From IMG/VR virus record IMGVR_UViG_3300006865_000015, positions 1 to 52,803 of that record: a stretch of 52,803 bases of DNA; one strand, 5' to 3'. Below the pieces are notes generated by a model. It searched no databases. It saw only the letters and a program-made list of their open reading frames with translations, and had not been told where the DNA came from. Positions within the stretch are counted from its first letter, which is position 1; every line of letters starts with the position of its first letter. Shown one piece after another: positions 9,219-39,980 of the stretch. The stretch comes from a virus (lineage: Duplodnaviria; Caudoviricetes). A program made the position numbers and the translations under genes.

Positions 9219-9737
9219 ATGGCGCAACCAATCACCCGGGTCAGGGTGACAGCCACCTTCGGTAAAGAGAAGGACTACAAAGAGCTGTTCCGTAGGATTG
9301 TACTTGACTACTGCAAACGGTTCCGAGTCAAAGTGACGCGCAAGCCGTGGGATGTATCAATCGTTGTTGCCGACTACCAAGGTGAAGACGGCTCTACAGG
9401 GATCACCTCAGTGCTCCCTGACGAGAACAAGATCATCGTGCAGATTCAAGACCCGTACTACGGCAACGTCAAGCTGCCCAACAACGAGATCCTCAACCAC
9501 ACTTTCATGGTAGTTCTGTGCCACGAGTTCGTACATTGCTGCCAAGCCTTGACAGGTAGAACGGGTATCCGAGCACGTGTGCTCATGGATGAAGATCTTG
9601 ACGATGAGCTCAACTACGCTGCGTACTTCTTCGACCCGGAAGAAATCGAAGCGCGAATCCTAGACGAGTACTACGTGCGACTGGTTCCTAACAGTTTGCG
9701 CGAGGCGCTAGGTAACCGAAACAAGGAGAACACCTGA
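9219..9737 (+). CDS. Zincin-like metallopeptidase
   Basis: HEFVH plus downstream PEEIEA. Confidence 0.75.
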   Translation: MAQPITRVRVTATFGKEKDYKELFRRIVLDYCKRFRVKVTRKPWDVSIVVADYQGEDGSTGITSVLPDENKIIVQIQDPYYGNVKLPNNEILNHTFMVVLCHEFVHCCQALTGRTGIRARVLMDEDLDDELNYAAYFFDPEEIEARILDEYYVRLVPNSLREALGNRNKENT

Positions 9738-15379: not shown

Positions 15380-17578
15380 TTGGATCCTGTTGAATACCTC
15401 ACGCAACGAGTTAGCAAGGTCACGCTGAACTCGAACAAGGTCTTCAATGAGGGAGCACGCATCCTGGCCCATCACGAAGGTTGGGAGGCGCTGCTCCCTA
15501 GCCTAGTGGACCTTGCATGGGACACCCTTGTCAAATTCGCCGTGCGATCGAAGATGAGCATTGCGGGTAACACCGTGAAGCTGACCTTCATCTCTGACGC
15601 CATCGGCAAGATGATCTGCCGCAAGATCGGTGCTGATGAAACCGACTACAAGAGCACCCTCGCTCTCGGCGACTTGCTGCTTGAAGCCTTCCTGCAGGAC
15701 GAAGCGATAGACATCTATCGTGAGTACGAGGGTAGGCAAGCACCCTACGTGGTAACCGTCCTGAACATGCCCGAAGATGTTGGCACTCTCCTGCGGGGCA
15801 CCACCTTCACCAAGCCCGAGCCGGTGAAAGGACTATGGTCGCCCATCACGGGAGAACCCTACATCAAGGGCTGGACAGACAACGCCAAGTTCAAGGAACT
15901 ACTGGATAGACCTTTTGTTCGAGCGCTGAACAAACTGCGCACGAGAGCCTTCGAAGTGAACGTACCTGTCTATGAAGTGCTGAAGGCAAATCCACCACCT
16001 GACTTCTTATGGTTGTGTGACAGTGATGGTGTGCTGTTCAAGCAGAGCATTTTGGGTAGCCTACCGCCGCTGAAGAAGACGTTCCACAAGGACGGCACAA
16101 AGTTCCTGGGAAAGAAAGACGCTCGTCTACAAAAGGCGCGCTCCAAGTGGTTCGAGTACCAGCAAGTTGTGAAGAAGGCCGAGCTTGTCATCGCGGAGAA
16201 CAAACCGTTCTACCAAGAAGTCTCTTGTGACTACCGAGGACGGTTTTACTACTCGGAGACGCTGTTCGGTTATCAGGGCTCTGACATCTCCCGTGCGTTG
16301 TTCCTGTTCGCAGAAGGCACAAAGGTTAGTGAGCAAGGTCTTCGGGCCATGAAGCAGCATGCAGCCTCCTGCTACAACAGATCCTATACGATCCGTGAGC
16401 TCAAGAAGCTCCCCTGGTTGACTACCGACTACGTGGCTCACCTTGAGCAGGAAGGTCTCGACTCCATCAGCCTTGACAAGATGACGATCGAAGACCGAGT
16501 GGCCTGGGCTACGGCGCACATGGACAAAATCACCAACGAGTGGGCTTTTAAGTTGCAGGAGACTGCCGAGAAGCCATACCTGTTCTTGGCCGTCTGCAAG
16601 GAGCTACGCGGCTGGCAAATGGACCCCGACATGTTCGAGTCCAAGCTGCCTATTCCTCGTGACGCATCCAACAACGGCTGGCAACATCTGGCGGCAATGT
16701 CAAAGGATCGTGACGCTGGCATGTTAGTCTCGCTGGTCCCCACAAAGATCCAGAAGGACTTCTATGTCGCAGTGGCTAAAGAGATGATCCACGCAAGGCC
16801 GAAGTGGTACGCTGACAGGAACATCCCGATGAAGCACATCCGAAAGGGTATCGCCAAGAGGGGTTCCATGACACGGGCCTACTCTGCGGGTCGTAACCGG
16901 ATCGCTCGCAACATGTACGACGACTGCCATGTGGAAGGCTTCACCACGAAGTATTCCATTAGTGAGGATGACTGCTACGAGTTGTCTGGCGATCTGGTCG
17001 ATGCTGTGAACCACGTATGCGCTGGTCCGCTGAAGACGACAAAATACCTGCAGAAGATCGCAGCGCACGAATTGGACCAAGGTAAGGAACATCTGGAATG
17101 GACCACACCAAGTGGATTTCCGGTAGTGTACAAGGCAGTGCTGCAGCATGAGCATCGTCAGCGGGGCACTATCCGGGGGATCAAGGGCAACAAAGATGGT
17201 CGCATCATGCATGTTATCCGAGTTGATGTCATCAACAAAGAAACCGGAGGGAAGGTGCCATGCCGAAGAAGCTTCGCCAGCGGTATCAGCCCCAACTTCG
17301 TCCACTCGATGGACGCAGCCCACCTTGCCAACACGGTAAACGCGTTCGATGGTGCATTCTGTGCTGTTCACGATTCGTTTGCGACGCTGTGTGAAGATGT
17401 GGAGCTGCTGACGGACATCGCCAAGATGACCTTCATTGCTCAGTATGACGTTGAGAACTTCTTCGATGTGATCGACACCTTGCTGGTTGAAGACCGTGAA
17501 GCCTTTATCACTAAGCAACCGCCTCTTGGTACGCTAGACGTGAATGAAGTCGTTGACTCTGAATACTTCCTCTCATAA
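15380..17578 (+). CDS. Single-subunit T7-like RNA polymerase (732 aa)
   Basis: DYRGRFY, motif A DASNNGWQH, motif B RKGIAKRGSMTRAYS, PNFVHSMDA, motif C VHDSF, C-terminal EYFLS. Confidence 0.96.
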   Translation: MDPVEYLTQRVSKVTLNSNKVFNEGARILAHHEGWEALLPSLVDLAWDTLVKFAVRSKMSIAGNTVKLTFISDAIGKMICRKIGADETDYKSTLALGDLLLEAFLQDEAIDIYREYEGRQAPYVVTVLNMPEDVGTLLRGTTFTKPEPVKGLWSPITGEPYIKGWTDNAKFKELLDRPFVRALNKLRTRAFEVNVPVYEVLKANPPPDFLWLCDSDGVLFKQSILGSLPPLKKTFHKDGTKFLGKKDARLQKARSKWFEYQQVVKKAELVIAENKPFYQEVSCDYRGRFYYSETLFGYQGSDISRALFLFAEGTKVSEQGLRAMKQHAASCYNRSYTIRELKKLPWLTTDYVAHLEQEGLDSISLDKMTIEDRVAWATAHMDKITNEWAFKLQETAEKPYLFLAVCKELRGWQMDPDMFESKLPIPRDASNNGWQHLAAMSKDRDAGMLVSLVPTKIQKDFYVAVAKEMIHARPKWYADRNIPMKHIRKGIAKRGSMTRAYSAGRNRIARNMYDDCHVEGFTTKYSISEDDCYELSGDLVDAVNHVCAGPLKTTKYLQKIAAHELDQGKEHLEWTTPSGFPVVYKAVLQHEHRQRGTIRGIKGNKDGRIMHVIRVDVINKETGGKVPCRRSFASGISPNFVHSMDAAHLANTVNAFDGAFCAVHDSFATLCEDVELLTDIAKMTFIAQYDVENFFDVIDTLLVEDREAFITKQPPLGTLDVNEVVDSEYFLS

Positions 17579-17742: not shown

Positions 17743-18116
17743 AACCATTCAAGACAGACTTCTTCTTACCAGGTAGCAAAAGGATATTTGTCTTCGGATC
17801 CAACCAGCTGGGCATACACGGTGCTGGTGCCGCTAAGTGGGCGCTCGACCACGCAGGTGCCAAGTGGGGACAACCCCACGGCGGTCAAGGTCAGTCGTAC
17901 GCCATCCCAACGAAGGACTTCAACATGAAACCACTAAGCCTGGACCATATTCGTTGGGGTGTAGAGGGTCTCATCCGAGAGGCACTCAAGAGACCTGAGC
18001 TCACTTTTTATGTGACGCCTATCGGTTGTGGTTATGCAAGACGAAACCCTGCTGATATCAAGCCCTTCTTCGAGGGGCATCCCGACAACATCATTCTACC
18101 TCCGGAGTTCAAGTGA
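17739..18116 (+). CDS. A1S_2505-family macrodomain-like protein
   Basis: IFVFGSN..GIHGAGAA, GQSYAIPT, VTPIGCG. Confidence 0.8.
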   Translation: MKPFKTDFFLPGSKRIFVFGSNQLGIHGAGAAKWALDHAGAKWGQPHGGQGQSYAIPTKDFNMKPLSLDHIRWGVEGLIREALKRPELTFYVTPIGCGYARRNPADIKPFFEGHPDNIILPPEFK

Positions 18117-18430: not shown

Positions 18431-18789
18431 AGGTCATTGTAGCAGGCTCTCGCAACTGGACTAAGCGAGACTGGCTCTTTACGGAGTTAGACAAGTTGCG
18501 CAATACGCTACCCATCACAGAAGTAGTGTCCGGTGGTGCTAAAGGAGCTGACTCCCTAGGTGAATTCTGGGCTGAAAAACGGGGAGTACCACTCACCCGG
18601 TTCCCTGCGGAATGGCTCCGTGAGGATGGTACTGTGGACAAGGCAGCTGGCTTCAAACGCAACGTGAAGATGGCAGAGTACGCAGATGCCCTTGTCGCTT
18701 TCTCCACTGGTACAAAAGGTACCGCTCACATGCTGAAAACAATGAGTATCAAAGGGAAGCCGACATTCCTCTTCTCGGCAACCACTTGA
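18427..18789 (+). CDS. SLOG (YspA/DUF2493-like) protein
   Basis: VAGSR, SGGAKGAD, AGFKRN..M, KGT.HM. Confidence 0.85.
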   Translation: MKVIVAGSRNWTKRDWLFTELDKLRNTLPITEVVSGGAKGADSLGEFWAEKRGVPLTRFPAEWLREDGTVDKAAGFKRNVKMAEYADALVAFSTGTKGTAHMLKTMSIKGKPTFLFSATT

Positions 18790-18803
18790 GCCGGACCCTA
18801 AAG
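18789..18803 (+). promoter_or_regulatory. Putative phage RNAP promoter, copy 1
   Basis: AGCCGGACCCTAAAG upstream of nrdJ; matches copies at 39965 and 47894. Confidence 0.55.
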
Positions 18804-22181: not shown

Positions 22182-22183
22182 AC

Positions 22184-22230
22184 AAAAGAAGAGCCCCCAC
22201 CTGTGGATAACCACGGGTAGGGGCTTTTCA
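22184..22230. terminator. Bidirectional Rho-independent terminator
   Basis: aaaagaa-GAGCCCCcACCTGTGG-ataa-CCACGGGTaGGGGCTT-tt between convergent blocks. Confidence 0.85.
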
Positions 22231-22234
22231 TTGC

Positions 22235-25200
22235 TTAGAACGGTAGGAAGTCTTCATCGAAGTTGTCTTCGATGTTGTCAACTCTCTTGTACGCAGTCGG
22301 CTTGACTTCCGTTTTGTGCGGAGGCTTCTCGCCACGCTCATCCTTTGCCTTCACAGGCGGTTCCCACTTGGGGATGGACTTCAGCGGCTTACTACCACCA
22401 GACGGGCTCATCTGGAACAGGGTGTTTCCAAAGAACTTACCTTGAGTGAAAAGGTTCTTCGCAGTCGCCTTGACACGGCTATCGAAGTTGGCTACCCACG
22501 AGCGGAACTGGTCTTTGGGACCAGCCAGCCGCAGGGACTCTTTCGACAGATAGACCAGCGACTCAAAGTCCTTCGGTGATACCGCAAGGTACTGCCGAGC
22601 ACGGCGCGGCATCTCCGCCGAGGACACCCATCCGTAGCTGCGTGCTTCCTTCAGGATGCCTTCCATCTCAGCGAGGCGTTCTTTCGACAGGGGTTTGCCT
22701 TCATAGGCCGCGCTGCCTGCCCTTTTCTGGAGCTCAGTGTCAAGACGGTCTTGGATCTCGTCAAAGAAGGCTCCTAGCGCGGGGAAGTCGCCACTCTCGC
22801 CGATACCCACGGGCTTGGGCGTGCCAAACGAGCTCACGTTTTTACGGACTCGTTGGAAAGCCTGTTGCTCTGCACCCTTCAACAATCCCTCGAACATGCG
22901 ACCGTAGTCGGCGATCTTCGGGATGGCATTTCGGATGGCCACGTTGTTGTAGGCATTCCGGTAGACTAACGCGCCAAAGGGCGTGCTGATGATCGAATCG
23001 TGAACCCACAGAGCCGGTACCGGAGTCCGAAGACCACGGTTCACGTACAGAGTAGTCCATTTCAGAAGGTCACCGTCCATTGCCTGGATCGGCATCACCG
23101 CCATCATGCGAGACTGGCTCGTGCCAAGTGCGTTCTGAAACAGATCCCACTTCTTAGTGCGCCGCTTAAAGTGCATCTGCGAGCCCTTGGAGAAGCTCGG
23201 TTGATAGGTCAACTCGGTGGATTCAATCTGGACGTCACCACGCGGAGTGCGGAAGACATCAACTTCCCTGTTGGGAAGCTTCATGTACACTTTCTGCCCA
23301 TTAGGCAGGGTCTTCTCAGTGTACGACGAATCATCCACACTCTTGTTGATAGGTTGCAGCCCCGGAGGGCTGAACACAGCTGTGTCTCCGGAGAGACCTT
23401 CCATGTAGACTGCCGTGTCAAGGATAGCCGTGTAGCGCCCAATCGACTTCATCATCTGCGCATACTTCGCGTTGATGATCTCACCCAGGGTAGCCTCAAT
23501 GCCTGCGCCAAGCACACTGTAAGCTTCCTCACGAGTGGGAAACACAGCGTCAAGATGCTCTACAGCAAGGTCTTCAAGCTCAGATGAGTACTCCTCCATG
23601 ATCTCGAACGGATAGTCCTGGAACACAGTGGCATGCTTTGAGTAGGCGTTTTGCATCAAGGGAGCCTTGAAGAAAACGTTGGCCAGCTTCTGGCGTCCCA
23701 TCTTTTCTTCAGCAGCAGCCAAGAAGCTCTTTAAGCCAAGCAGCTTCTCTTTGTCGTCCTTCAGGATGTTACCCAGCTGCAGTTTGATCTTGTTCAGAGC
23801 AGCACCGCGAAGGTCTTCCTGCTTGGGGTTAGCAATACCAAGGCGGATCGCGTTGTCGGTAGAGCCAAAGAACAGAGACTGCAAGAAGATACCGTTCTGG
23901 GTACCGTCATCGAAGTTGTGATGCGTCAGCGCAAGCGGTTGGCCATTCGGGCGAGTCTCTAGCTGGTAGAGATCATCCCACAAGTTCTTCGCACCCATGG
24001 ATTCGCCACGTTCCATTGCGGCAAGGTAGCGAACGATGTCAGCTTCCATGTCCGGGTTGAGCAGCCACTCGTTGTACTGCTTGCCGAGCTCAGCCAGCTT
24101 CGATGCCATCTCAGGACGGTACCTGCGGATGACATCTGCTTCGTGGGTCTTCGTGATGGCCGGTTGAGGGTCGATCGTCGTGTAGTAGGCAACCACAGTC
24201 GTGTACATCAGGCCAATAGCGCCTTGCTCACGCGGGCTCAGAGCCATGAGTGCTTCGTGCTTCTTGTCACCTGGGAGGCGCAGGATGCGGTCGAACTTCT
24301 GCTGGTTGTACTGCACCTTAGTCGCGTTGAACAAGTCTTCCTTGTAGACAATGTCCTGCTTTGCAAGACCCATTGTGTCACGGATCACGTTCTTAGAGGA
24401 CATGTAGTCAGTGTCGAAGTTCGCAGGGAACATCCGCTGGTTCGAGAGAGAGTGCATGTACTTCGTGAAGCGCACTCCCGGTGATCCCTTGATGTTCTGC
24501 ATGTCGAACTCGATCGCCTGGAACTTCTGCAGCATGACTTCTGCCGCATGCTTCCGCTTGAACGACTCGATGTTTTCCGGCTTCACACCATCTTGTCGGA
24601 GATTCTCCGGGAGAGTGGCGTTCGAACGGGCAGCAGCGTAGTCCTTGCGGCCAACGCCATAGCGCTCTGCAAAGACAGAATGACTGAACAACGGGTAGCC
24701 CGTGTCAGGGTCGTTCTCCACCTTGGCAGCAACGTCAGCAAGAGCAATGTCAGCGAACAGGACGTCCTTCTGGCGGAACACCGTGCCTACGCGGCCCATG
24801 ATGTCTTTCACTGCTTCCGCAGCAGACGTAACAAGGCCCTTGGCGCCGAAGCTCTTGGCAGTGAATAGCTGACCTTTATCCAGCAGACCAGCGCCACTCG
24901 GGTTGGGTGTCGTCGAGGATCGGCCCCGAGACTGGTCTCCAAGCATGACTTCAGACATTCGTTCCAGCGAGCGGGCATTCTCTTTAGCATGCTCCGACAT
25001 GGTGACATATGGACGACCCGTGTTCGGATCATGCACAACGACCGCGTCACCTACTTCAATAGCGTCCTGCGCCATGACCTTCGCCAGCTGCTCCACGCTC
25101 TTCGGATCCAGCTTGATACCAGCATTCTTCAGGCCATTCGATGCGAAGTGTTTGATGCTGTTGACATAGTCGCTGAAGAACATACCATCCGGCACGGCAT

Positions 25201-26053
25201 TACCGGTGTGGTCACGCACAATGGCCCGCTCAGCTTTCTTCGATTTGTCTTTGTAGTCAAGCGGCACCTGCATGTTGGCCTTCGCCGAGGCGACACCAAA
25301 CACGGTAGCGATTGTGTTGCGGTCTTCAGGAGAATCGATGCCAGCATCAAACAGAATTTTCAGACCTGCCGCGTAGTGCTGCGTCGGCATGCCCTCTTCC
25401 ATATGTTCCATCGTCACACGGGCATCCGGAGAGAGCAGCGCGGCCTTAGCAGCCAGCACCGTGTTCACCAAAGGCGAGCTAGACTCATCAGCCACACTCT
25501 CGATGAAGTCCTCACCATACTGCTCCGCACGAGTGTTCCCGCTCTCAGTGGCGGCGTTGCGGGCGTTTAGCATGGACTGCGAGGCAAGAATTGCGGTAGA
25601 CGGATCCTGCGCGATGGCCTGGATGTCGCTGGCAATGTCTAGCTGGTTTGCAAGTTCTTGCTGGTACTGGCTGTTGTAGTCCTGCGGCGTGACCGTCCGC
25701 ATAATAGGTGCCCCTGTCATGGGGTCCACTTGCATGTTGCCAGCCTCATCCAGCACAGGCACATCTGTAGTAGCCGCTGCGTAGGGGGAGCGCGACACAG
25801 CAGCAACGTCTTCCATGCTCTGAATTTCTTCAGGCATGTAGGTGGTATCCGGCGTGGGGATCAGTTCAGGGTTGCGAAGCCGGTCGTAGACCAGATCACG
25901 TGGATCATAAGCAGCTACTTCGGGAACCGCAACCGAGGAGTGCATGTCTCCTTCTTGTTGTACCAGAGCGCTGAGGCTCCGCCGTTGCGGAATGAGTTCG
26001 TCTGCCGTCAGGGCAGGCCTTCCGAGTGGCGCACCGCCAGTCTTGATAGCCAT
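22235..26053 (-). CDS. Putative virion-encapsidated single-subunit RNA polymerase (1272 aa)
   Basis: NQRMFP..VIRDTMGLAK, motif A DDGTQNG, motif B KAPLMQNAYS, IQAMDG, motif C WVHDS in correct order; no Cys; in ejection-protein cluster. Confidence 0.8.
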   Translation of the reverse strand: MAIKTGGAPLGRPALTADELIPQRRSLSALVQQEGDMHSSVAVPEVAAYDPRDLVYDRLRNPELIPTPDTTYMPEEIQSMEDVAAVSRSPYAAATTDVPVLDEAGNMQVDPMTGAPIMRTVTPQDYNSQYQQELANQLDIASDIQAIAQDPSTAILASQSMLNARNAATESGNTRAEQYGEDFIESVADESSSPLVNTVLAAKAALLSPDARVTMEHMEEGMPTQHYAAGLKILFDAGIDSPEDRNTIATVFGVASAKANMQVPLDYKDKSKKAERAIVRDHTGNAVPDGMFFSDYVNSIKHFASNGLKNAGIKLDPKSVEQLAKVMAQDAIEVGDAVVVHDPNTGRPYVTMSEHAKENARSLERMSEVMLGDQSRGRSSTTPNPSGAGLLDKGQLFTAKSFGAKGLVTSAAEAVKDIMGRVGTVFRQKDVLFADIALADVAAKVENDPDTGYPLFSHSVFAERYGVGRKDYAAARSNATLPENLRQDGVKPENIESFKRKHAAEVMLQKFQAIEFDMQNIKGSPGVRFTKYMHSLSNQRMFPANFDTDYMSSKNVIRDTMGLAKQDIVYKEDLFNATKVQYNQQKFDRILRLPGDKKHEALMALSPREQGAIGLMYTTVVAYYTTIDPQPAITKTHEADVIRRYRPEMASKLAELGKQYNEWLLNPDMEADIVRYLAAMERGESMGAKNLWDDLYQLETRPNGQPLALTHHNFDDGTQNGIFLQSLFFGSTDNAIRLGIANPKQEDLRGAALNKIKLQLGNILKDDKEKLLGLKSFLAAAEEKMGRQKLANVFFKAPLMQNAYSKHATVFQDYPFEIMEEYSSELEDLAVEHLDAVFPTREEAYSVLGAGIEATLGEIINAKYAQMMKSIGRYTAILDTAVYMEGLSGDTAVFSPPGLQPINKSVDDSSYTEKTLPNGQKVYMKLPNREVDVFRTPRGDVQIESTELTYQPSFSKGSQMHFKRRTKKWDLFQNALGTSQSRMMAVMPIQAMDGDLLKWTTLYVNRGLRTPVPALWVHDSIISTPFGALVYRNAYNNVAIRNAIPKIADYGRMFEGLLKGAEQQAFQRVRKNVSSFGTPKPVGIGESGDFPALGAFFDEIQDRLDTELQKRAGSAAYEGKPLSKERLAEMEGILKEARSYGWVSSAEMPRRARQYLAVSPKDFESLVYLSKESLRLAGPKDQFRSWVANFDSRVKATAKNLFTQGKFFGNTLFQMSPSGGSKPLKSIPKWEPPVKAKDERGEKPPHKTEVKPTAYKRVDNIEDNFDEDFLPF

Positions 26054-26055
26054 TG

Positions 26056-29000
26056 TTACTCCTCAGTGAGTTGTTTCGCCACACCTTGACCGATCGCCGG
26101 GAATGACCCGACAACAGGAAGTGAACGGAAGATTTGTGCCGTGCCCACCCTAGGATTACCATCCGGGCTGGTCACGTTGTAGACACCACGCACTGCGCGG
26201 TCACCCCATGAAAGAACAGGAGACATGTCCTTAGCGCGATCCCACATTCCAGGGTTCTTACGCTCAGGATAGAGTGGGCTGAACAGGTTGGCAACCGCCT
26301 CGCCCTTGCCAAGCAGACCAGCAGAATACACCGTACGTTGCGCTCTGCGGAGTTCATCTCGAATGAACGGGTTGACACCGTCTTCGTAGGCGAGTTCGTC
26401 CTTCAGAGCATCCGCGAAGGCGGCAAACATCAGAGCAGTACCGATGGTCACAAACGCTTGGTAGCGCATTGCGGCTGAACCTTCCTTGATGTAGTTCTTG
26501 TAGAGATTCGGCAGGACGGTGGTAGTCTGAGCAGCCACGAATCGAGTCATTGCAGTGATGATTCGGAAGCGCGGATCGTAGTAGTACTTCGGCAGGTTGT
26601 GTGCCTGCGGGTTGACGATCTTCGAGTCGATAAAGTTAGAGAGGGCACTGAGGATGTTCTCCTGCACATCTCGCTCGGCAGCATCGACATCTTGGGCCTG
26701 CAGCCAGTCCGTAGCAAACAACGCGTTGGACTCTACCTTATGAGCATCAAGGAAATCTAGCACAGCAGGAACATTCATCCCGAACTGTGTCAGCTCCTTG
26801 ACAGCCTGCGCTTGCTCGTTGGTGAGGCCCGTGTAGTAGAGGATCTGCTGCGTGCGCGTTTGTCTCGGTAACTGCGAGAGAATCCCAAGCTTGTGAATGA
26901 AAGAGTCAGAGGCCATTGCAAGAGCAGCCATACGGTTACCGTCTGTAAGAGCCCGGAGACCGATGATCTCGGCAAAGACCTGCATCATCTTCTTCATGTT
27001 GGCATAGGGAAGCTCGTACTTAGCCTGCGTGTTGTAGCTGGTTTCGTTGTAGCCTAGTCTCTCGAATAGGTTCCGGCCGAAGTCGCGCCGCCACATCGTC
27101 TGGATGTCATCTGCCAATGCCTTCACCTTAGCAGGATCTGCATTAGGATTGGTCATCAGAGCATCGTATCTCTTTTGGAGATCTTCCACCTTGGCGTACT
27201 GTGTTTCAGTGTCGTACACATCACGAGCGTAATGTAGACCCAGTGACGCACTGACCATGCCAGTCGTCTTGTTGAAGTCTGCGCGCCACTCTCGCATGAA
27301 CTCCTTCACGGCAATGTGAGTTTGCTGCACCATCTTGTTGCCAGTCGTGCCGAGCATAGCGATAGCCATCTCAGGCAAACTAGAGATTGTGGCTTTAGCC
27401 AGACCAGCAAGCATCGTAGCAGTGGTTCCCCACCCAAGGGCTTTCTCAATCAGGGGGTAGTCCTTCATCGGGTTGTAGTCACCCATCTCAATAGCATACC
27501 ATGCCTTGACTTGTTCGACAGCGTCCTTGTACTCGGCTTCAGAGTCAAACTCACCCGCCTTGTAGGCTTTCTGCAGCAGGTTGGCTAGCACCTTGCCATC
27601 TTCACCGAGAAACACCCTGTTGGCAATACGGCTGGCGATATTCTGCTTGACAGTTTCCATTGCCGCGAAGATGTTGGGCTCGAACAGGTCGTTCAAGTCC
27701 TTGTTGGCATAGACACCAGTCTTACGCAGCATTTCAGCAGCAGGTGCAGCACGTTCAGGATTACCCGACACGATGCCATCGATCGTCTGAATTGCTTGTC
27801 GCTCAGTCAAGCCCTTATCTTTCAAATGAGCAAGTAGTCGAGCGCGATTCTTGTTGATCTGCGACGGACGGACCAGCGCAGACTGCAGCAGGAAGTCTTG
27901 CTCTGCCAACTCAGGCATCTCAATGCCGAAGCGCGCAGCGGTGTTGATCATGTGGGCACGGTTTTGCTCAACAGTGTCTTTCCACTTCTGCAGGATAGCC
28001 GCGTTAGGATAATCCTCCGGCAATGCCTCTCCTTTGATCCAGAAGTCCTGCGCAGCGTCTCGCAACATGTAAGCAGCTTGATAGGTGTTGGTGCCAAGGC
28101 GAGCAGCCAGCTTGTCCAGCGAATCACCGCTCCATGCCCCGAGCAGCCTCTGCTTGAAACCAGAGTAGTTCTCCCCCGGGAGCAGACCAGAGCCAGACAT
28201 GATGGCCTTCAGGATGCCACGGTACTCTCGGAAGGTGCCATCAGGGCGGGCCACATCACGAGTGATCGTACGGGCGAGACCGCGCACAAGGCGAAGCGGA
28301 TCTGAGATGATCGCACGCATTCCACTCCATGTCCCCGGGTCACCTTCAAGGTCAGACAGCTTCGTCTCAGCATGAATGTTGAAGTGTTGTGCAGCTTCAG
28401 CAATCGACTTGAACTGGCGGCCTTCCTCGCGGATACCCTCAGTCTGCATCTTCGTGTTGAACCGATGATTGTCTTCTTGTGCTCGCTTGTTCGTCTGGAT
28501 AGCGTCGATGGCAGAGTGCCACTGCGCAGTGTCATAGAGACCTTCTCCGAGACGGAAAGCACCACCGATGGCACCACCAGCAAGAGCGGCGTTGATGAGT
28601 TCCGTCTCAAAGTCCTTCTCATAGATCAGGTCTTGAAGAGGCTTCCCCTTCGTTGCGAGCATCTCTAACAACGTCTGAGCAGCTTCAGTACTGCCTTCAG
28701 TGAGGGAACCCGCAGCGAGGGCCAGACTCCCCTTTGCAAGGCGATCTACAGAGGAAAGTTCGCGCTTGGCAAATTCTGCGGAGTGCTCCACAACATCAAG
28801 GATCTCCTTGCGAGTAGCATTGAGCAGGAGCTGGTCTGCTTCTGCGGCAGACTTTGCGATCCCACGCTCCACCAGCATAGCAGTAGCTTCTGCCCGACCC
28901 GCTTTGGTGAGGATGTTCGTACCCATCATTCCGTTCAGACCCACACGATCGAGCACTGCGGAAGGAATCCCGTACATCAGCGCCTTCACGCTGTCCTTCT

Positions 29001-30156
29001 TGTCTTCGGGTTGCTCAGCGTAGTACTGGCCAGAGTAGAGAATTGCAGCAGGCATGGCAGCAGCAATTGGTGCGCCGATGCCCGTTGCGCCAACAGCAGT
29101 GGCCACACCGCCACCAGCCACCAGCGCGGCCATCATCGGAAGGCTAGACGCCAAATTGTTCCCAACGTAGAGAGCCGTGTCAGACACCGTAGACCAGGGG
29201 TCTTTAGTGTCAATGTCTTTGTAGCTGGAGAGTGTCGTCGGTAGATCGCGCTGGAGAATCTTCTCCTTGGTCACGATCTTCTGACCTTTCTCAGACAGCC
29301 AGCTCCACTTAGACTCGTCTCCTACCATCTGAAGGATACCACCAAACGACTGGTAGGCAGACGACAAACCCAGGCTCCAACTAGTCTTCAACTGGTTGCG
29401 TGCCTGATTCATGATATTTCGATCAGGCTGGCGGACATAGACGCCCCCAACAGGATCCTGCGTAGTAGCGGCAATCATGAGGTTCTCACGCTCAGTGGCC
29501 AGCTTAGCCTCAGTCTCCGCCTTGATGTGAGCAGGCGCATCTGGATCGTCCATGATCTTTGACAGACGATTAATCTCCTCGATGCTCTTCTGCACGGCTG
29601 CGATGCCGAGGGAGTTCTTGATACCAGCGTACGCGGCTTCATCCGCAACAACTGCCTTCGGGAAGTAAACCTGCGTTTCGCCTTGCGCTTGCTGCTCCTG
29701 CCTGTCTAGCGCCTTCTTGACCACAGGGTTGTGGCCGCGCAGCGAGGGGAACAAGGTGGCTGCAGCACGCATCGCAGCTTGATCACGAACAACAGACAGA
29801 TCTGTGGAAGGCGTAATGTTGGTGATTCCAAGGAGAGTGGCCTGATCGCCTAGGTTGAGGCCACGAGCGTTGACCTGATCTGACAGGGATCGACCATAGG
29901 GGTCCGTTTTGCCAGTTGGTCGCAGATCCGTGAACCCGCCTTGTTGAGCGAGTTCATTGATCAGTTGAGCGGTATCGTCCCCAGACACCTGCCCAGGAAC
30001 GAAGATGCCACCTTGCACTTTGGCAGTCTCAGGGGCATTCAGCCCGGTAAGACGGTGGCGTTTGCCATCCACTTCAACAGTGTCGGCATCAATCTGCTTG
30101 ACACGAGAGGGATCCACGGGCTTACCGTCAATCGTCAAGATAGCGTTGTTACTCAT
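26056..30156 (-). CDS. Large internal virion (ejection) protein with N-terminal SNase-like domain
   Basis: IDADT..RLTGLNAPET..DPYGRSL; Gly/Ala hydrophobic segments; no Cys; GAGAGG RBS supports start at 30156. Confidence 0.75.
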   Translation of the reverse strand: MSNNAILTIDGKPVDPSRVKQIDADTVEVDGKRHRLTGLNAPETAKVQGGIFVPGQVSGDDTAQLINELAQQGGFTDLRPTGKTDPYGRSLSDQVNARGLNLGDQATLLGITNITPSTDLSVVRDQAAMRAAATLFPSLRGHNPVVKKALDRQEQQAQGETQVYFPKAVVADEAAYAGIKNSLGIAAVQKSIEEINRLSKIMDDPDAPAHIKAETEAKLATERENLMIAATTQDPVGGVYVRQPDRNIMNQARNQLKTSWSLGLSSAYQSFGGILQMVGDESKWSWLSEKGQKIVTKEKILQRDLPTTLSSYKDIDTKDPWSTVSDTALYVGNNLASSLPMMAALVAGGGVATAVGATGIGAPIAAAMPAAILYSGQYYAEQPEDKKDSVKALMYGIPSAVLDRVGLNGMMGTNILTKAGRAEATAMLVERGIAKSAAEADQLLLNATRKEILDVVEHSAEFAKRELSSVDRLAKGSLALAAGSLTEGSTEAAQTLLEMLATKGKPLQDLIYEKDFETELINAALAGGAIGGAFRLGEGLYDTAQWHSAIDAIQTNKRAQEDNHRFNTKMQTEGIREEGRQFKSIAEAAQHFNIHAETKLSDLEGDPGTWSGMRAIISDPLRLVRGLARTITRDVARPDGTFREYRGILKAIMSGSGLLPGENYSGFKQRLLGAWSGDSLDKLAARLGTNTYQAAYMLRDAAQDFWIKGEALPEDYPNAAILQKWKDTVEQNRAHMINTAARFGIEMPELAEQDFLLQSALVRPSQINKNRARLLAHLKDKGLTERQAIQTIDGIVSGNPERAAPAAEMLRKTGVYANKDLNDLFEPNIFAAMETVKQNIASRIANRVFLGEDGKVLANLLQKAYKAGEFDSEAEYKDAVEQVKAWYAIEMGDYNPMKDYPLIEKALGWGTTATMLAGLAKATISSLPEMAIAMLGTTGNKMVQQTHIAVKEFMREWRADFNKTTGMVSASLGLHYARDVYDTETQYAKVEDLQKRYDALMTNPNADPAKVKALADDIQTMWRRDFGRNLFERLGYNETSYNTQAKYELPYANMKKMMQVFAEIIGLRALTDGNRMAALAMASDSFIHKLGILSQLPRQTRTQQILYYTGLTNEQAQAVKELTQFGMNVPAVLDFLDAHKVESNALFATDWLQAQDVDAAERDVQENILSALSNFIDSKIVNPQAHNLPKYYYDPRFRIITAMTRFVAAQTTTVLPNLYKNYIKEGSAAMRYQAFVTIGTALMFAAFADALKDELAYEDGVNPFIRDELRRAQRTVYSAGLLGKGEAVANLFSPLYPERKNPGMWDRAKDMSPVLSWGDRAVRGVYNVTSPDGNPRVGTAQIFRSLPVVGSFPAIGQGVAKQLTEE

Positions 30157-30194
30157 GGATGTTCCTCTCATGTCTATAGACCCGCAGCGGGCCG

Positions 30195-32171
30195 TTAGGG
30201 TTTCTTAGTACGACGATCTTCGATCCAGCGTAGAAAGCCGGTCATTCCGATCTTCCCATCTGCTGCACTTTCGTACCGCTCTCGAACAGAAGCAGGGAGC
30301 TTGTCCCACTCTTTGATGATCTCGTCGCTTGCTTGTTGGACGCCGTAGCTAGGATCAGCAACCTTGTTTTCGGCGATCTTCTTGTTGAGCTCATCTACGA
30401 ACTGGGCATGCGCCGCAGCATTGATCTTACCTGTCTTCGTGCGGAACAGGCCCGTGTCGTTAGGACGCAGTGCCATTACAGCATTCAGGAAGAAAGACTT
30501 CCGCAGGGCTTCACCTGCTACAGCACCATCCGCGATTTGATGCGGCTCCAGGCCTGAGATCGTGATCTCTGCCATCTTCGCAAACTGCGCGGGAGTTACA
30601 TGACGACCGAGTTCATACTTCAGAGAAGCGAACTCATGGGCCAGTGCCTTTGACTGAGCGTCGGCATCTTGGATTCGACCCTTGCCGAACATGGTACGAA
30701 GTTTGGCCTCCAGCATCTGCTGAGTGCTCTTCGTTACGTCCTCGTAGTTCTGACGGAATGCAGTCTTGCTCTCGAACTCAGTAGGATCAATGGGGATCCA
30801 CTTGCCATTCTGAGAGACCATTGCCTGCTTACCACCATCCGTATAGGCCATGACAGCGTCTTTGCCTCGCCAGAAGCCAGCTTCGTGGTTGGTGAACTTC
30901 GTGCTGCTATTCGGGTTACTGCCATCGTCCAGGTCCGGAGACGCTGTCAGCAGCATGTTTGCACGGCGATAGAGCTCCCGCGCGGATTCATACTTGCCTT
31001 GGAGTTCCAGAGCTTTCGCCTTGTTCATCCAGTCGATGGCTTGGGCTTGAATCTCAGGTGCCTTCTTGGCAAGAGCCTTGATCGAATCAGAGTCCATTCG
31101 GCGGAGATCGGCCCGAAGTTCCCGTTGCATCTGAGCCTTGGCAGCTTCTTGTGCCTTGCGCTCTGCAGCCTCTTGCGCACGACGAGCATCGCTAGCTCGG
31201 AGGGTCTCCAAGCCAGCGTACCGGAAGGAGCCACCCACAGAGCCACCCGTCAGGAGGCCACCCGTGGCGATGACTGCGAAACGAGCCAGATCCTTCTTGT
31301 CGAAGAGGCCAGTCGGTCCCCAGAGCTCGCTGATGGCGCTCTCCAGGAAAGATCTCCGCTCAGGGGTATCTTCCTGCGTCGGAAACTGCTCACGGTCTTG
31401 TTGCTGAATCACTTGCAGGTGGTTCCGGATATTCGGTTCCTGCAAGGTGGCTTCGATGCGAGCGGCACGTTCCTCGTCGGTGTCAGGAGCATCCACGGTG
31501 ACTTCTGCGACCGGCGACCGCTTCGGAGGATCTACTCGTTCGAGAGGCATCACAGGGGCTTGGCTGTCCTTGACCATGCGGGCTGCCTCCCTCTGTTTGA
31601 CTTGATTGAACTCGCCAACAGAGAGGTTTTCGTTACCGGGCTCGTAGATCGCCTTCATACCAGCACGACGCAGCGCAACATCCGGCCTTAGACCCCGGCT
31701 CGGAGTGCCAGCAGGGAGGGTGGCCACCGGAGTGGGTTCACCAATCGTAGCACCAGGACTGTCTGTGATTGCGCGACTGCGGGCGAGTTCCCCTTCGAGG
31801 ATCTGCCGAACGCGCGGGTCTTTGGTATTCTCCAGCTCGGCTTTGATTGCGATGACATCAGACGCCGCGCGACGGCGGGCGGCAGCACCAGCATCAAGCT
31901 CTTCTTCTTGCTGAATACTACGAACACGAGCGAGTTCTTCTTGAATCAAGATTCGATCTTCAACATTGGTAACGCTACGAAGATCATTCTCAAGCTGCCT
32001 GACTCTGTCCGCATTGGTCGGTTGAGCAGCGGCGTCTGCTTTGATATCAGCAACGACGTTAATACCCGAATTGCGTTGACCCACCTTGTGTCGGCTAGCA
32101 ATGTCAGAGCCCGTACCAGTCGGAACAAGTTGGAACATACCACGGCCTGCCTCTTGGGCTTCCGGGTACAT
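30195..32171 (-). CDS. Internal virion protein (likely C-terminal part of a frameshift fusion)
   Basis: 658 aa, helical, no Cys, no clear RBS; frame stays open upstream through a slippery site. Confidence 0.75.
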   Translation of the reverse strand: MYPEAQEAGRGMFQLVPTGTGSDIASRHKVGQRNSGINVVADIKADAAAQPTNADRVRQLENDLRSVTNVEDRILIQEELARVRSIQQEEELDAGAAARRRAASDVIAIKAELENTKDPRVRQILEGELARSRAITDSPGATIGEPTPVATLPAGTPSRGLRPDVALRRAGMKAIYEPGNENLSVGEFNQVKQREAARMVKDSQAPVMPLERVDPPKRSPVAEVTVDAPDTDEERAARIEATLQEPNIRNHLQVIQQQDREQFPTQEDTPERRSFLESAISELWGPTGLFDKKDLARFAVIATGGLLTGGSVGGSFRYAGLETLRASDARRAQEAAERKAQEAAKAQMQRELRADLRRMDSDSIKALAKKAPEIQAQAIDWMNKAKALELQGKYESARELYRRANMLLTASPDLDDGSNPNSSTKFTNHEAGFWRGKDAVMAYTDGGKQAMVSQNGKWIPIDPTEFESKTAFRQNYEDVTKSTQQMLEAKLRTMFGKGRIQDADAQSKALAHEFASLKYELGRHVTPAQFAKMAEITISGLEPHQIADGAVAGEALRKSFFLNAVMALRPNDTGLFRTKTGKINAAAHAQFVDELNKKIAENKVADPSYGVQQASDEIIKEWDKLPASVRERYESAADGKIGMTGFLRWIEDRRTKKP

Positions 32172-32184
32172 GCGGTTGAATTCT

Positions 32185-32237
32185 GCCCGCGCTGCCTCTT
32201 GCTCAGGGGTCAGCAGCGACGGGCCAACGGGAAAGGG
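32185..32237 (-). promoter_or_regulatory. Putative -1 programmed ribosomal frameshift signal
   Basis: In-frame C CCT TTC heptamer, 6-nt spacer, 11-bp GC-rich stem. Confidence 0.65.
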
Positions 32238-32764
32238 ACAGCGGTCGTCCCATCCGCGTAGCCTGCGGCCTTATCTACTTGCATATTGATCTGCTGGCCG
32301 CGACCCGCGAGCAGGTCTCTTGCCTGTCTTGCAGCCCCCGTGCCAATAGGCACCGCGCTAGGGTTCCCCGTGAAGTGCTGCATCAGACCTTGCAGGGCCT
32401 TGTTGGCTTCACGCCCCTCCTGCACGAGACGAGCGATGATGCCTTGGTTCTTCGGGTCTTGCGCGGCCGGAGCCGGGATGACAGCCTCACCAGGGGTGAG
32501 CATTGCCGGTTGCACATCAGTAGGTTGAGGTGCAGGTGCAGCCAGCGGGGCGCGAGCAGCAGGCAGCGGCGAGCGGGTACCCACACGAGGCTCCACACGT
32601 ACAGGCGCTTCCACGCCATACTTCGCAGCCAGGCCCCTCATCTTCAAGGCGTGCTCTTCTTCTTTCTGACGCATCCTCTGCGCCGCTTCGAGCGATTTGC
32701 GCTCTTGGTCAGCAGCCACAACCCAATCGTTGCGACGTTCTTCACCACTCAGTGGTCCACTCAT
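32210..32764 (-). CDS. Internal virion protein (N-terminal part of the fusion)
   Basis: AAGGAG RBS; PAMLTPGEAVIP and GYADGTTAVP motifs. Confidence 0.75.
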   Translation of the reverse strand: MSGPLSGEERRNDWVVAADQERKSLEAAQRMRQKEEEHALKMRGLAAKYGVEAPVRVEPRVGTRSPLPAARAPLAAPAPQPTDVQPAMLTPGEAVIPAPAAQDPKNQGIIARLVQEGREANKALQGLMQHFTGNPSAVPIGTGAARQARDLLAGRGQQINMQVDKAAGYADGTTAVPFPLARRC

Positions 32765-32775
32765 CTTGGTTCTCC

Positions 32776-33606
32776 TTATGCACCGCCAACTTCGACGTTG
32801 TCATACATCGGGTTGTAAAAAGGTCTGTAAGGGATCTGCATTTTAGGTAACGGTGCCGGTGCTGTGGCTGTCGGCATCACAATAGACGATCGACGCGGTT
32901 GCGCTGCTTGAGCGACACCTGCCAGCGCGGCATCCTTACCGCCAGCCATTGCGTTAGCACGAGCAGGGATCATAGGGATTGCGGCTCGACTCGGTACGCT
33001 CGGTGCATTCACAGCACTAAACAACTCAGGAGCAAAGCGGGCACCAGCAGCGGCGCGAGCAGCAGCCCTATCCACGCCAGAAAGCGGAGCAGGTACGCTC
33101 GTTGTTCCATCAGCAAGGCCAATCAGCTTGGTGGCGTACTTTGCAGCAAGACCCCCTAGAGGGCCAGCTACAGCAGTACCAGCTGCCTGAGCGCCAGCCT
33201 GCACGTACTCTCCTTCAGCGAGGCTTTTCAGCACTCCCGCGAAAGGCACCGCAGTCATGCCAGAAGTGGCAGCTTCTCCGACCGCATCGGTAGCCGCTCC
33301 AGAGGCAACATCCGTAGCTGCCGTGCTCATCGGAACACCATAGCCGACATCACTAAAGAGAGCCGCCTTCGTGGCGGAGTCTTGAGCTACAGAGCCAACG
33401 CTAGCAGCCGAAGGAGCCATCGCCTTGTCAAGCGCCTTCATACCGATGGCTGTGCCCACTTCGCGCATGACCCTCTTGTTGGGATCTTCCGGAAGCATCA
33501 CGTTCTCAGGCATTGAGGGGGCGCTCGCAGCAAGAGGCGCTACAGTATTGCCCAGAGGAGCAGCCGCACGTTGCGGTTGCCAGCCCCAAGGTTTGTTGTA
33601 GTCCAT
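32776..33606 (-). CDS. Ala/Gly-rich internal virion protein
   Basis: Composition, glycine-zipper segment, position. Confidence 0.7.
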   Translation of the reverse strand: MDYNKPWGWQPQRAAAPLGNTVAPLAASAPSMPENVMLPEDPNKRVMREVGTAIGMKALDKAMAPSAASVGSVAQDSATKAALFSDVGYGVPMSTAATDVASGAATDAVGEAATSGMTAVPFAGVLKSLAEGEYVQAGAQAAGTAVAGPLGGLAAKYATKLIGLADGTTSVPAPLSGVDRAAARAAAGARFAPELFSAVNAPSVPSRAAIPMIPARANAMAGGKDAALAGVAQAAQPRRSSIVMPTATAPAPLPKMQIPYRPFYNPMYDNVEVGGA

Positions 33607-34286
33607 TACTTACCCCCTTCCGAAATCGTCTGTTGACGGTTCGGGTTAGCGAACACAGTAGATGCGTAGCGTTGGAGTGCCTGCCAGGGAGCATCCACCT
33701 GCTGCTGCTCGATGTCACGAGCCGTACCACCCAGGTTCTGGAAGCCTTGCACCGCGCTGGTAGTGAGACCAGCCGTTGCGTTGACATTCTGCCCAATGGC
33801 ACCTTCAGCAGCCATCTTGTTGATGAAGTTTTGCTGTGCTGCTTCTTGATCGATCTTGGCAAACTGAGCTGCAGTTGCGGCGTCGTTAGCACCTTGTTGC
33901 ACAGCTTGTCGCGCCGAGCCGAGAGTGCCTGCCGCTCCGTAGTTCTTACCGAGTTCGGCAGTCTTCATGCCAGCTTCGAGGATGGCTGCATCCTTGAGAG
34001 CACCTGTATTGTAGGCACCACTTGTAGCAGTAGCCTTCAAGCGGTCTCGTTGGGCTTCCATGTCCTCGATGCCCATTCCGGTAACGCCAGCGATCTGCCG
34101 TGCGCCAGAGCCCATAGCAGCTTGAAGCAGCGGATTCACACCAGCGACGTTGTCTAGCTCGCCAGTGTCGTAGAGGTCTCCAGCCTCCCGCATGGCGCCT
34201 TCAATGTAGGGGCGCATCCATGCAGGGATCGACTCAGTGGTCTTGGAGCCACCACCGCCCCCTCGGCGGATCTTGATATTGTTCAT
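33606..34286 (-). CDS. DNA pilot/ejection protein
   Basis: GGGGGSKTTESIPAWMRPY N-terminus, GTLGSARQ, C-terminal GGK. Confidence 0.7.
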   Translation of the reverse strand: MNNIKIRRGGGGGSKTTESIPAWMRPYIEGAMREAGDLYDTGELDNVAGVNPLLQAAMGSGARQIAGVTGMGIEDMEAQRDRLKATATSGAYNTGALKDAAILEAGMKTAELGKNYGAAGTLGSARQAVQQGANDAATAAQFAKIDQEAAQQNFINKMAAEGAIGQNVNATAGLTTSAVQGFQNLGGTARDIEQQQVDAPWQALQRYASTVFANPNRQQTISEGGK

Positions 34287-38178: not shown

Positions 38179-38187
38179 GCCGATCTC

Positions 38188-38670
38188 CTATTTCTTGGGT
38201 TTGACCCAGACAACGCATTCAGCCTCTCTGCGAAGCTGTAGTCCTCGCAGTACCTTACCACCGCCCTTGTCCCACTTGCGTAGTTCATGTGGTACTTCAT
38301 CCCAACGCTGCGCCAGGATCCTTTTGCGAAGGGTACTGATCTGCAGGTTTCCAGGGCCAAGGTTGTATACGAAGTCCAGGATCGCGTTGATTCTTGCCGG
38401 GTTGTTTGTAACGAAGTAGTCTGCCACCAGTGTCGGACATAGCCGGAGTAGCTGAGGTAGAAACTTTCCAACCAAAGTGTGCTTGAAGAGCTCTCTCGCA
38501 CGGGACTCTAAGATCGGAGGATCTTTAAGAGTCACACGAGTGCCGTCTTCGTAGAAAGTGGAGCCGTAACCGATTGTTGGCACCTTAGCGGGGCACAGGT
38601 ATGGAAAGGGCTTGAACCCCTCGAAGTGGTGGCCGAGGATTTCAGCGTCCGTTGTGTCGATGGGGTTCAT
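38188..38670 (-). CDS. Endolysin, GH24 lysozyme
   Basis: FEG..YLCPA..TIGYG, FVYNLG, GLQLRREAE. Confidence 0.93.
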   Translation of the reverse strand: MNPIDTTDAEILGHHFEGFKPFPYLCPAKVPTIGYGSTFYEDGTRVTLKDPPILESRARELFKHTLVGKFLPQLLRLCPTLVADYFVTNNPARINAILDFVYNLGPGNLQISTLRKRILAQRWDEVPHELRKWDKGGGKVLRGLQLRREAECVVWVKPKK

Positions 38671-39964: not shown

Positions 39965-39980
39965 GCCTTAGGCACCGGCT
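39965..39980 (-). promoter_or_regulatory. Putative phage RNAP promoter, copy 2
   Basis: AGCCGGTGCCTAAGGC upstream of the lysis/tail/ejection genes. Confidence 0.55.

Follow-up and report, generated by a model that had tools for sequence, protein, structure and literature searches.

Does a tailed phage that encodes a complete T7-like RNA polymerase (RNAP) carry a second single-subunit polymerase at the end of its late operon, and would such an enzyme travel inside the virion to transcribe the first genes of the infecting genome? This question is raised by P0001, a 1272-aa minus-strand gene of the IMG/VR viral contig IMGVR_UViG_3300006865_000015 (Duplodnaviria; Caudoviricetes), all 52,803 bp of which were analysed and are referred to below as the window. 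We found that the P0001 protein is free of cysteine, that its gene comes last in an operon of structural and ejection-type genes, and that its modeled structure and conserved catalytic residues are those of a T7-like enzyme, which leads to the prediction that it synthesizes RNA as a DNA-dependent single-subunit RNAP. We consider it likely that P0001 is an active DNA-dependent RNAP of an unnamed family present in podophages of the type represented by Roseobacter phage CRP-7, and that it is packaged into the virion, ejected into the cell and put to work on the first genes, with the T7-like RNAP following. From the observations described below we infer the packaging and ejection of the protein, the kind of template and promoter it uses, and how the two polymerases share their work.

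Predicted fold, catalytic residues and family

The original prediction, made from the letters of the DNA, had proposed a cysteine-free 1272-aa open frame with a set of polymerase motifs. Translation confirmed the frame, a count gave 0 Cys in 1272 residues, and every quoted motif was found in the translation at matching codon coordinates (Table 1). Both catalytic aspartates and the Lys and Tyr of motif B, described there as intact, are indeed present (D716, D1019, K796 and Y804) and align with their T7 counterparts. The expected right-hand polymerase fold has likewise been borne out, since the AlphaFold2 model of P0001 matches the T7, mitochondrial and N4 RNAPs. The model covers residues 73-1272, was built on a 49-sequence homolog alignment and has a mean per-residue confidence (pLDDT) of 86.7 and a predicted template modeling score (pTM) of 0.85; pLDDT drops below 50 only in one loop and in the last ~55 residues; in the C-terminal tail, model residues 1165-1200 lie below this value. 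Foldseek comparison with the PDB produced 73 matches at E<=1e-3, and every row among the matches listed is a single-subunit RNAP. The best E-values were 7.7e-14 for the yeast mitochondrial RNAP (mtRNAP), 7.5e-12 for human mtRNAP, 1.8e-11 for T7 RNAP and 4.3e-10 for the mini virion RNAP (mini-vRNAP) of phage N4. In BFVD, there were 43 matches at E<=1e-3; their named rows are T7-like RNAPs or segments of N4-like virion RNAPs (vRNAPs), bar three uncharacterised or 'coil containing' proteins, and some further rows are nameless. Matches to DNA polymerases start no lower than E 1e-3 in this database.

The structural alignments cover the protein nearly from end to end. VIA-align gave Z 21.7 both for T7 RNAP (8dh5_M; root-mean-square deviation 5.4, 587 aligned) and for yeast mtRNAP (6ymw_A; root-mean-square deviation 6.8, 671 aligned). 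Model residues 1-1144 are matched to T7 residues 12-883, which means the whole enzyme including the N-terminal domain, and model residue 1144 is paired with the T7 C-terminus, residue 883. The T7/Autographiviridae (PF00940) and mitochondrial RNAPs are the best whole-length structural matches of P0001, with Z 18-22, against Z 13.4-16.4 for the N4 entries (16.4 for 2po4). In its predicted structure, P0001 has the fold of the T7-like single-subunit RNA polymerase superfamily, a similarity well above the level of chance.

The catalytic residues of T7 RNAP have well-known functional roles, and their counterparts are conserved among the relatives of P0001. A word-seeded search yielded 48 homologs, 1034-1401 aa long, all of them unnamed or 'hypothetical' with the exception of one 'actin-related protein'. 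In the 49-sequence alignment, N538, R540, K554, R558, D716, G717, Q719, N720, G721, L799, M800, Q990, D993, H1018 and D1019 are invariant, and K796 and Y804 are conserved at >=90%. Within the T/DxxGR-like region, R540, K554 and R558 align with R424, K437 and R440 of N4, and the residues leading to R540 differ (SNQR vs WRGR). To cover more distant relatives, an 836-position hidden Markov model (HMM) of the polymerase part was searched against 1.84 billion cluster representatives. It matched 215 of them at E<=1e-3, 169 at <=1e-10 and 82 at <=1e-30; among the 150 of these 215 that were listed, full-length proteins measure ~1030-1606 aa, nearly all of them ~1100-1600 aa, and none is N4-sized, and no family cluster among the matches listed is named RNA polymerase. 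In an alignment of 38 members chosen among the most divergent ones, which share 14-30% identity with P0001, the sole invariant columns were R540, R558, D716, R749, Y804, V986, D993 and D1019. Thus, Y804 is kept in 38/38 divergent members; K796, conserved at >=90% in the close subfamily, is replaced by Arg in the CRP-7 protein gp33.

Profile comparison, which is independent of the structural model, connects this family to known polymerases. PF00940 is detected at E<=0.01 in 4/38 divergent members (best 1.4e-4), and in a neighbouring ESM Atlas cluster of 1216 aa it is found on 88% of members. A T7-like profile, having T7 as its first row and ten further sequences including the window's own T7-like RNAP, aligned with the divergent-family profile in hhalign at probability 95.8 and E 6.6e-9 over 601 columns, with the catalytic motifs paired; the part of the alignment listed matches T7 R425 with R540, D537 with D716, D569 with D747, Y571 with R749, K631 with K796 and Y639 with Y804. 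The remaining pairs, H784/Q990, D787/D993 and D812/D1019, were obtained by aligning the family with T7 alone, a comparison that was non-significant (E 0.21). Comparison of the family with the single N4 sequence was not significant either (E 0.16), the top local alignments pairing the right motifs in both cases, and BLASTP and hhalign comparisons of P0001 with the window's own T7-like RNAP as a single sequence also fell short of significance. Significance was reached only with real profiles on both sides. An N4-like profile of seven polymerase cores aligned with the family at probability 86.9 and E 4.1e-6 over 238 columns, which extend from the T/DxxGR region up to and including motif B, and the yardstick comparison of the N4-like with the T7-like profile gave E 2.7e-10 over 222 columns. 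Judged by this yardstick, the new family is about as distant from the T7 and N4 families as these are from each other. By fold and profile comparison, P0001 belongs to the T7-like superfamily, but not to Pfam PF00940 as currently modeled, and its family represents a third lineage that is slightly closer to the T7 and mitochondrial enzymes in structure and in alignment length.

P0001 differs from T7 RNAP in several respects. It has an N-terminal extension of >=72 aa and a beta-rich insertion of ~90 residues (model strands 811-901) that separates motif B from the QxxDG element, and it continues for ~200 residues beyond motif C, compared with ~70 in T7, before a disordered tail of ~55 residues that has no counterpart in T7 RNAP. 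Q990 stands where T7 has H784, and there are 0 Cys, vs 12 in T7 RNAP. The genes are also placed differently: T7-type RNAPs are encoded among early or replication genes, P0001 in a late ejection-type operon.

The virion enzyme of N4, gp50 (Schitoviridae; core mini-vRNAP of 1106 aa, PDB 2PO4, 3C2P and 9PNQ), has the T7-like right-hand module and the absence of cysteine in common with P0001. However, it is a protein of 3500 aa compared with 1272 aa. In P0001 the polymerase fills residues 73-1216, the ~1000-aa N-terminal injection region and the ~1400-aa metallopeptidase-containing C-terminal encapsidation region of N4 gp50 are missing, and Pfam revealed no extra domains beside the polymerase body; instead of such flanking regions, there is a separate 1371-aa protein encoded upstream. 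Virion RNAP modules of the N4 type are stated to be restricted to N4-like phages and prophages, nearly all of them being fused to a metallopeptidase domain (PMC5512222). We considered P0001 as a member of the N4 gp50 family or a trimmed N4 enzyme; its size and domain make-up speak against this, and by the structural scores (Z 18-22 for T7 and mitochondrial RNAPs vs 13-16 for N4) and the profile E-values (6.6e-9 vs 4.1e-6) it is at least as close to the T7 and mitochondrial enzymes as to that of N4. The original prediction of a stand-alone mini-vRNAP in a phage with an SU10-type head therefore stands as regards the fold, catalytic residues, lack of cysteine, operon position and head type, but P0001 appears to form a lineage of its own instead of being a cut-down N4 enzyme.

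Among isolated phages in GenBank phage records, a single family member was found, gp33 of Roseobacter phage CRP-7 (MK613349.1). CRP-7 is the closest named phage, its portal being 52% and its T7-like RNAP 30% identical to those of the window. Annotated as 'hypothetical protein', gp33 has 1235 aa and 0 Cys and matches the family in hhalign with probability 99.6 and E 1.6e-23 over 674 columns. It occupies the same place as P0001, following gp36, gp35 and gp34, in a genome that also encodes a T7-like RNAP, gp30. The two proteins differ in the motif B substitution mentioned above and are too far apart for a tblastn match; in a tblastn search against 50,697 GenBank phage records, P0001 and P0090 had no match, and P0101 and P0122 matched CRP-7 only. 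The G+C content of the CRP-7 genome is 40%, vs ~54% here, and in the passages of its description covered here only ORF30 is called an RNA polymerase and functions are given for 18/73 open reading frames (ORFs) (PMC6918029). In full-text searches of the literature on virion RNAPs and CRP-7, we found no description of the P0001 family.

Genome context, cysteine depletion and the second polymerase

The window, with an estimated completeness of 86%, consists of two converging arms. Plus-strand genes run from the left end to 22,181 and encode a ligase-like protein, a family A DNA polymerase, a 5'-3' exonuclease, a primase-helicase, the T7-like RNA polymerase and a B12-type ribonucleotide reductase. 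Minus-strand genes run from 52,715 down to 22,235, starting with a 556-aa gene at the terminase position and continuing with an SU10-type portal, the major capsid protein, an adaptor, tail genes and a lysozyme, and they terminate in a tightly packed row encoding proteins of 226, 276, 184, 658, 1371 and 1272 aa. The arms meet at 22.2 kb. Two further statements of the original prediction agree with this layout. Pfam matches to SU10_MCP (E 1.5e-73), SU10_portal (1.6e-117) and SU10_adaptor (3e-11) support the SU10-type head, and the minus-strand operon does end with P0001, a hairpin and U-run coming after it. The start of P0001 lies 2 nt past the stop of the 1371-aa gene, which, together with the downstream hairpin, makes P0001 the last cistron of the late operon. 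This GC-rich hairpin, flanked by U and A runs, is probably a bidirectional terminator. A comparable hairpin is present in CRP-7 at 17814-17858.

The same arrangement is found in N4, where plus-strand replication genes converge on a minus-strand late operon ending with gp52 (150 aa), gp51 (644 aa) and gp50; the corresponding order here is 184, 658, 1371 and 1272 aa. N4 also has a second T7-like polymerase, RNAPII (PMC4496689). A canonical T7-like RNAP is likewise encoded in the window, and its presence beside P0001 defines a two-polymerase system. This second enzyme was absent from the original prediction; the phage has two single-subunit polymerases instead of the one noted there. In an 11-sequence alignment of T7-like RNAPs to which it belongs, the columns of T7 D537, K631, Y639, H784 and D812 are invariant. 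The window's enzyme is short (732 aa vs 883 aa in T7) and is the closing gene of the replication module, a position also seen in phiKMV-type phages; its identity across close relatives is 53-70%.

The gene neighbourhood of P0001 is conserved together with this second polymerase. A scan of IMG/VR found 46 related loci, in 45 of which the part of the gene encoding motif A is present (the close subfamily). In these 45 loci, the gene order is kept wherever flanks exist: the 226-aa gene, the 184/658 pair (usually fused), the 1371-aa gene and the polymerase. Past the polymerase come a convergent 98-aa gene and then the ribonucleotide reductase, T7-like RNAP, primase-helicase and DNA polymerase. The T7-like RNAP is found in 34/45 loci; the other 11 end 1-2,935 nt past the gene, and the shortest distance from the gene to the start of an RNAP match is 2,905 nt. 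In a second subfamily of 27 loci, with ~15% identity to P0001, a T7-like RNAP and a primase-helicase are nearby in 27/27, and a relative of the 1371-aa protein is present in all loci that reach upstream. The two polymerases of a locus diverge at different rates, the P0001-like protein being 24-44% identical (best tblastn segment) and the T7-like RNAP of the same loci 36-70%.

Cysteine is nearly absent from the family proteins covered here. In the window, P0001 and the neighbours of 1371, 658, 276 and 226 aa have 0 Cys; cysteine makes up 1.4-1.9% of the DNA polymerase, primase-helicase, T7-like RNAP and ribonucleotide reductase of the same phage. In the 45 related loci, the polymerase-like ORFs, taken as stop-to-stop frames, have 22 Cys in 55,078 aa and none in 29/45, whereas the co-resident T7-like RNAPs have 334 in 23,699 aa (14.1 per 1000), an approximately 35-fold difference. 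Among 141 family proteins of >=1000 aa, every subgroup has 0-0.39 Cys per 1000. Phages with known virion proteins served as controls: N4 gp50 (0/3500), gp51 and gp52 are all cysteine-free, and T7 gp15 and gp16 have 0 Cys and gp14 has 1, compared with 12 in T7 RNAP. In CRP-7, gp33, gp34 and gp35 have 0 Cys and the T7-like RNAP has 14.

Both ends of the window are cut in or next to genes, the left end (1-204) lying inside an ORF and the right end (52716-52803) just upstream of the 556-aa gene. Consequently, the junction where both arms begin is missing along with any earliest genes; judged from CRP-7, this divergent start region measures ~5-8 kb. In the remaining sequence, the promoter-like motif TnAGCCGGnnCCTAA (12-15 nt) occurs in exactly four copies, all intergenic, oriented along transcription and distributed over both arms; with one mismatch allowed, there are 10 matches vs 2.4 expected, and 0/100 shuffles reach 10. 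CRP-7 has an analogous motif of ~20 nt, TATAGTCCCCTATTAAAAGG, at five intergenic sites on both arms and also along transcription; in the CRP-7 record (L084, L002) these regions are 2022-2144, 7151-7199, 9306-9502, 38171-38282 and 57176-57270. It is apparently an undescribed CRP-7 phage promoter. Both motifs look like promoters of a phage polymerase, most simply of the T7-like RNAP. On its early genes, N4 has hairpin promoters that are used by the vRNAP; no repeated hairpin family emerged from the intergenic regions of CRP-7 and of the window, which is without its early region.

The genes upstream of P0001 are presumed to encode ejection proteins. For the 1371-aa protein, homologous to CRP-7 gp34 (E 4e-23), the model is mediocre (pLDDT 64), and the matches to ejection proteins are a weak helical one to the T7 core (9jyy_I; Foldseek E 0.072, probability 0.69) and one to the PhiM1 ejectosome (8vb2_A; VIA Z 7.4) within the noise range for helical proteins. 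A relationship to T7 gp16 or to the N-terminal domain of N4 gp50 was also considered; the profile comparison was non-significant, and only the N-terminal nuclease fold is clear. This SNase-fold domain (VIA Z 8.0, 112 aligned; Foldseek probability 1.00) has D28, D30, T31, R40, N45, P47, E48 and R94 invariant in 19 homologs and is present in CRP-7 gp34 as well; a nuclease at the tip of an ejected protein would be unusual. The 184- and 658-aa genes correspond to one ORF of ~840-1060 aa in most related loci and are split elsewhere only in locus L015. The 658-aa gene has an open frame that reaches back beyond its ATG, and the 184-aa product terminates in ...ARRC*, where the final residue is the sole Cys of the protein and lies beside a probable frameshift. 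A frameshift, faulty assembly, a genuine split or recoding could each account for this. Elsewhere in the window, a 23-nt direct repeat (96% identical) lies within two different plus-strand genes, a 238-aa ORF and a 297-aa RNase_H_2-like ORF, which hints at paralogous segments.

Table 1. Coordinates of P0001, its motifs and other features of the window
Feature	Position	Strand	Details
Cys-free single-subunit RNA polymerase gene P0001, 1272 aa (fold predicted)	22235..26053	-	AlphaFold2 model, Foldseek, VIA-align; T7-RNAP-like body = residues 73-1216
T/DxxGR-like region NQRMFPANFDTDYMSSKNVIRDTMGLAK, residues 538-565	24359..24442	-	N538, R540, K554, R558 invariant in 49/49; R540 ~ T7 R425
Motif A DDGTQNG, residues 715-721	23891..23911	-	D716 ~ T7 D537, N4 D559; invariant 49/49 and 38/38
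Motif B KAPLMQNAYS, residues 796-805	23639..23668	-	K796, Y804 ~ T7 K631, Y639
IQAMDG, residues 989-994	23072..23089	-	Q990, D993 ~ T7 H784, D787; both invariant 49/49, D993 also 38/38
Motif C VHDS, residues 1017-1020	22994..23005	-	D1019 ~ T7 D812; H1018, D1019 invariant 49/49, D1019 38/38
C-terminal tail, residues 1217-1272, predicted disordered, conserved F..PF end	22238..22405	-	pLDDT, end of VIA-align alignment, family consensus
Hairpin + U-run between convergent operons	22182..22234	.	Folding -35.9 kcal/mol, z -6.26, 0/200 shuffles match
Canonical T7-like RNA polymerase, 732 aa, 11 Cys	15380..17578	+	PF00940 E 2.2e-50
Promoter-like motif TnAGCCGGnnCCTAA, four copies	6632-6643(+), 18789-18800(+), 39969-39980(-), 47898-47909(-)		All intergenic, along transcription, both arms
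1371-aa protein, 0 Cys, SNase-fold N-terminus + long helical body, presumed large ejection protein	26056..30171	-	Cys count, structure matches
N-terminus of the 1371-aa protein with SNase-fold domain (residues 13-138)	29758-30171	-	
658-aa Cys-free protein, size class of N4 gp51 and T7 gp15	30195..32171	-	Fused with 184-aa gene in most relatives
184-aa protein, N-terminal part of fused ~900-aa ORF of relatives	32210..32764	-	Locus comparison
184/658 junction	32141-32260		
Two Cys-free proteins, 276 and 226 aa, cluster head	32776..34286	-	226-aa: weak PHROG 'DNA ejection protein' match, E 0.0078
23-nt direct repeat	5386-5408 and 7508-7530		

Proposed packaging and ejection, and alternative explanations

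The virion packaging of P0001 is suggested by its last place in the late operon, as in N4, by its cysteine-free neighbours, by the depletion of cysteine in the protein itself, by conserved synteny and by the rate of change. By analogy with N4, the protein would be a late product, the final one encoded by the operon of structural and ejection genes, and would be packed in the capsid with other cysteine-free internal proteins. It would then pass via the tail or ejectosome channel into the cytoplasm, refold there and start to transcribe the incoming genome from its first genes, perhaps also helping to draw the DNA into the cell. Early genes would in turn lead to expression of the T7-like RNAP, which would serve phage-specific middle and late promoters. 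In PMC13434306, gp52, gp51 and gp50 are described as the conserved ejection operon of N4, with gp50 expelled last, and it is proposed that the N4 vRNAP draws in the genome as it transcribes. The same strategy of bringing a polymerase along in the particle to perform the initial transcription is described for crAss-like gp66, the tape-measure-fused RNAP of P23-45 and the vRNAPs of phiKZ and AR9; those enzymes are, however, two-barrel or multisubunit, whereas P0001 has a single-subunit Pol A-type fold. Large cysteine-free helical proteins of StenR_269 and some Zobellviridae have also been speculated to be vRNAPs, on low-confidence models (PMC10747016).

Several observations do not sit easily with a packaged and active P0001. 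A phage with a complete T7-like RNAP has no obvious need of a second one. T7 RNAP requires a free C-terminus in its active site, and P0001 continues for another ~55 residues past the corresponding position. The contig does not reach into the early region, where any early promoters would lie, and one promoter-like motif class per genome was detected in the window and in the intergenic regions of CRP-7, with no second class. Presumed ejection proteins as they are, the neighbours of P0001 have no firm tie to known ones: hhalign comparison of the 1371-aa family with T7 gp16 and with the N- and C-terminal domains of N4 gp50 was not significant. Moreover, sequence searches with P0001 alone came up blank, Pfam showing no PF00940 at E<=1 (the single match, to Gp7_6th at E 0.027, is sub-threshold) and PHROGs no match; in the PDB, the sequence alone and the 49-sequence profile gave chance matches only. 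The polymerase assignment therefore rests on predicted structure and profile comparison. Finally, P0001 is without the C-terminal region that in N4 gp50 is needed for encapsidation, according to PMC5512222.

The last of these points, like the single class of promoter-like motifs, would fit if P0001 were an active RNAP that is never packaged, a late cytoplasmic enzyme, engaged for example in very late transcription or in priming of replication, that merely happens to be encoded at the operon end. The fold and catalytic residues would suit any active RNAP, this one included. We nevertheless regard it as unlikely. Cysteine is nearly absent from 141 family proteins, against 14.1 per 1000 in the co-resident T7-like RNAPs, and the proven ejected proteins of N4 and T7 are likewise cysteine-free. 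The gene is tightly coupled to cysteine-free neighbours of ejection-protein size and occupies the genome place of N4 gp50, and its product evolves much faster (15-44% identity) than the co-resident RNAP (36-70%), as virion and ejection proteins tend to do. At the other extreme, P0001 might be a packaged ejection protein that has a polymerase fold but acts mainly as a DNA-translocation motor or a part of the ejectosome, any RNA being made without a role in gene expression. Its ejection-protein context and composition, the genome-pulling proposed for the N4 vRNAP (PMC13434306) and the separate complete RNAP of the phage are all compatible with this role. Against it speaks the conservation of residues responsible for nucleotidyl transfer and choice of ribonucleotides (D716, D1019 and Y804 throughout, K796 in most members), and we rate this explanation as quite improbable. 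In addition, since RNA polymerisation on phage DNA by a motor amounts in practice to transcription, this explanation overlaps with that of an ejected polymerase acting on the first genes.

That P0001 is no RNAP at all but belongs with the DNA polymerases or primases within the Pol A superfamily, or that its similarity is an artefact of structure prediction, appears barely credible. Pol A DNA polymerases do share the palm, fingers and thumb, and P0001 by itself has no Pfam RNA_pol match. However, all the listed PDB matches (73 being significant) are RNAPs, and the alignments include the RNAP-specific N-terminal domain; in BFVD, DNA polymerases are confined to E>=1e-3. The Tyr aligned with T7 Y639 is invariant, the phage already has a Pol A DNA polymerase and a primase-helicase, and the profile evidence, which does not depend on the model, agrees. 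An active RNAP that enters the cell with the DNA and is followed by the T7-like RNAP thus remains the explanation we favour as likely.

Implications for phage transcription

Among single-subunit enzymes, virion-carried RNAPs are known only from N4-like phages, as 3500-aa polyproteins that PMC5512222 describes as confined to this group. If P0001 is indeed such an enzyme, free-standing, ~1250 aa long and encoded in the ejection operon of podophages unrelated to N4, a particle-carried polymerase would be more widespread than thought and would not need giant flanking domains. The protein would provide a small, tractable model for the passage of a large enzyme via a phage tail and its subsequent refolding, as well as a new orthogonal polymerase for biotechnology. 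Its family would form a deep third branch beside the T7/mitochondrial and N4 polymerases, and a function would be assigned to proteins all of which are hypothetical, including one in the cultured marine phage CRP-7. It is even possible, although here we are doubtful, that the widespread, uncultured podophages of CRP-7 type are fully host-independent, threading a polymerase of ~1250 aa through the tail, which refolds, transcribes the leading genes and helps to draw in the genome before the T7-like RNAP takes over. Together with the 1371-aa anchor-type protein, this polymerase might then represent an unfused state, ancestral or parallel to N4 gp50. It might also be the smallest polymerase that any phage naturally ejects, and its family might be a third deep lineage among the single-subunit RNAPs of phages.

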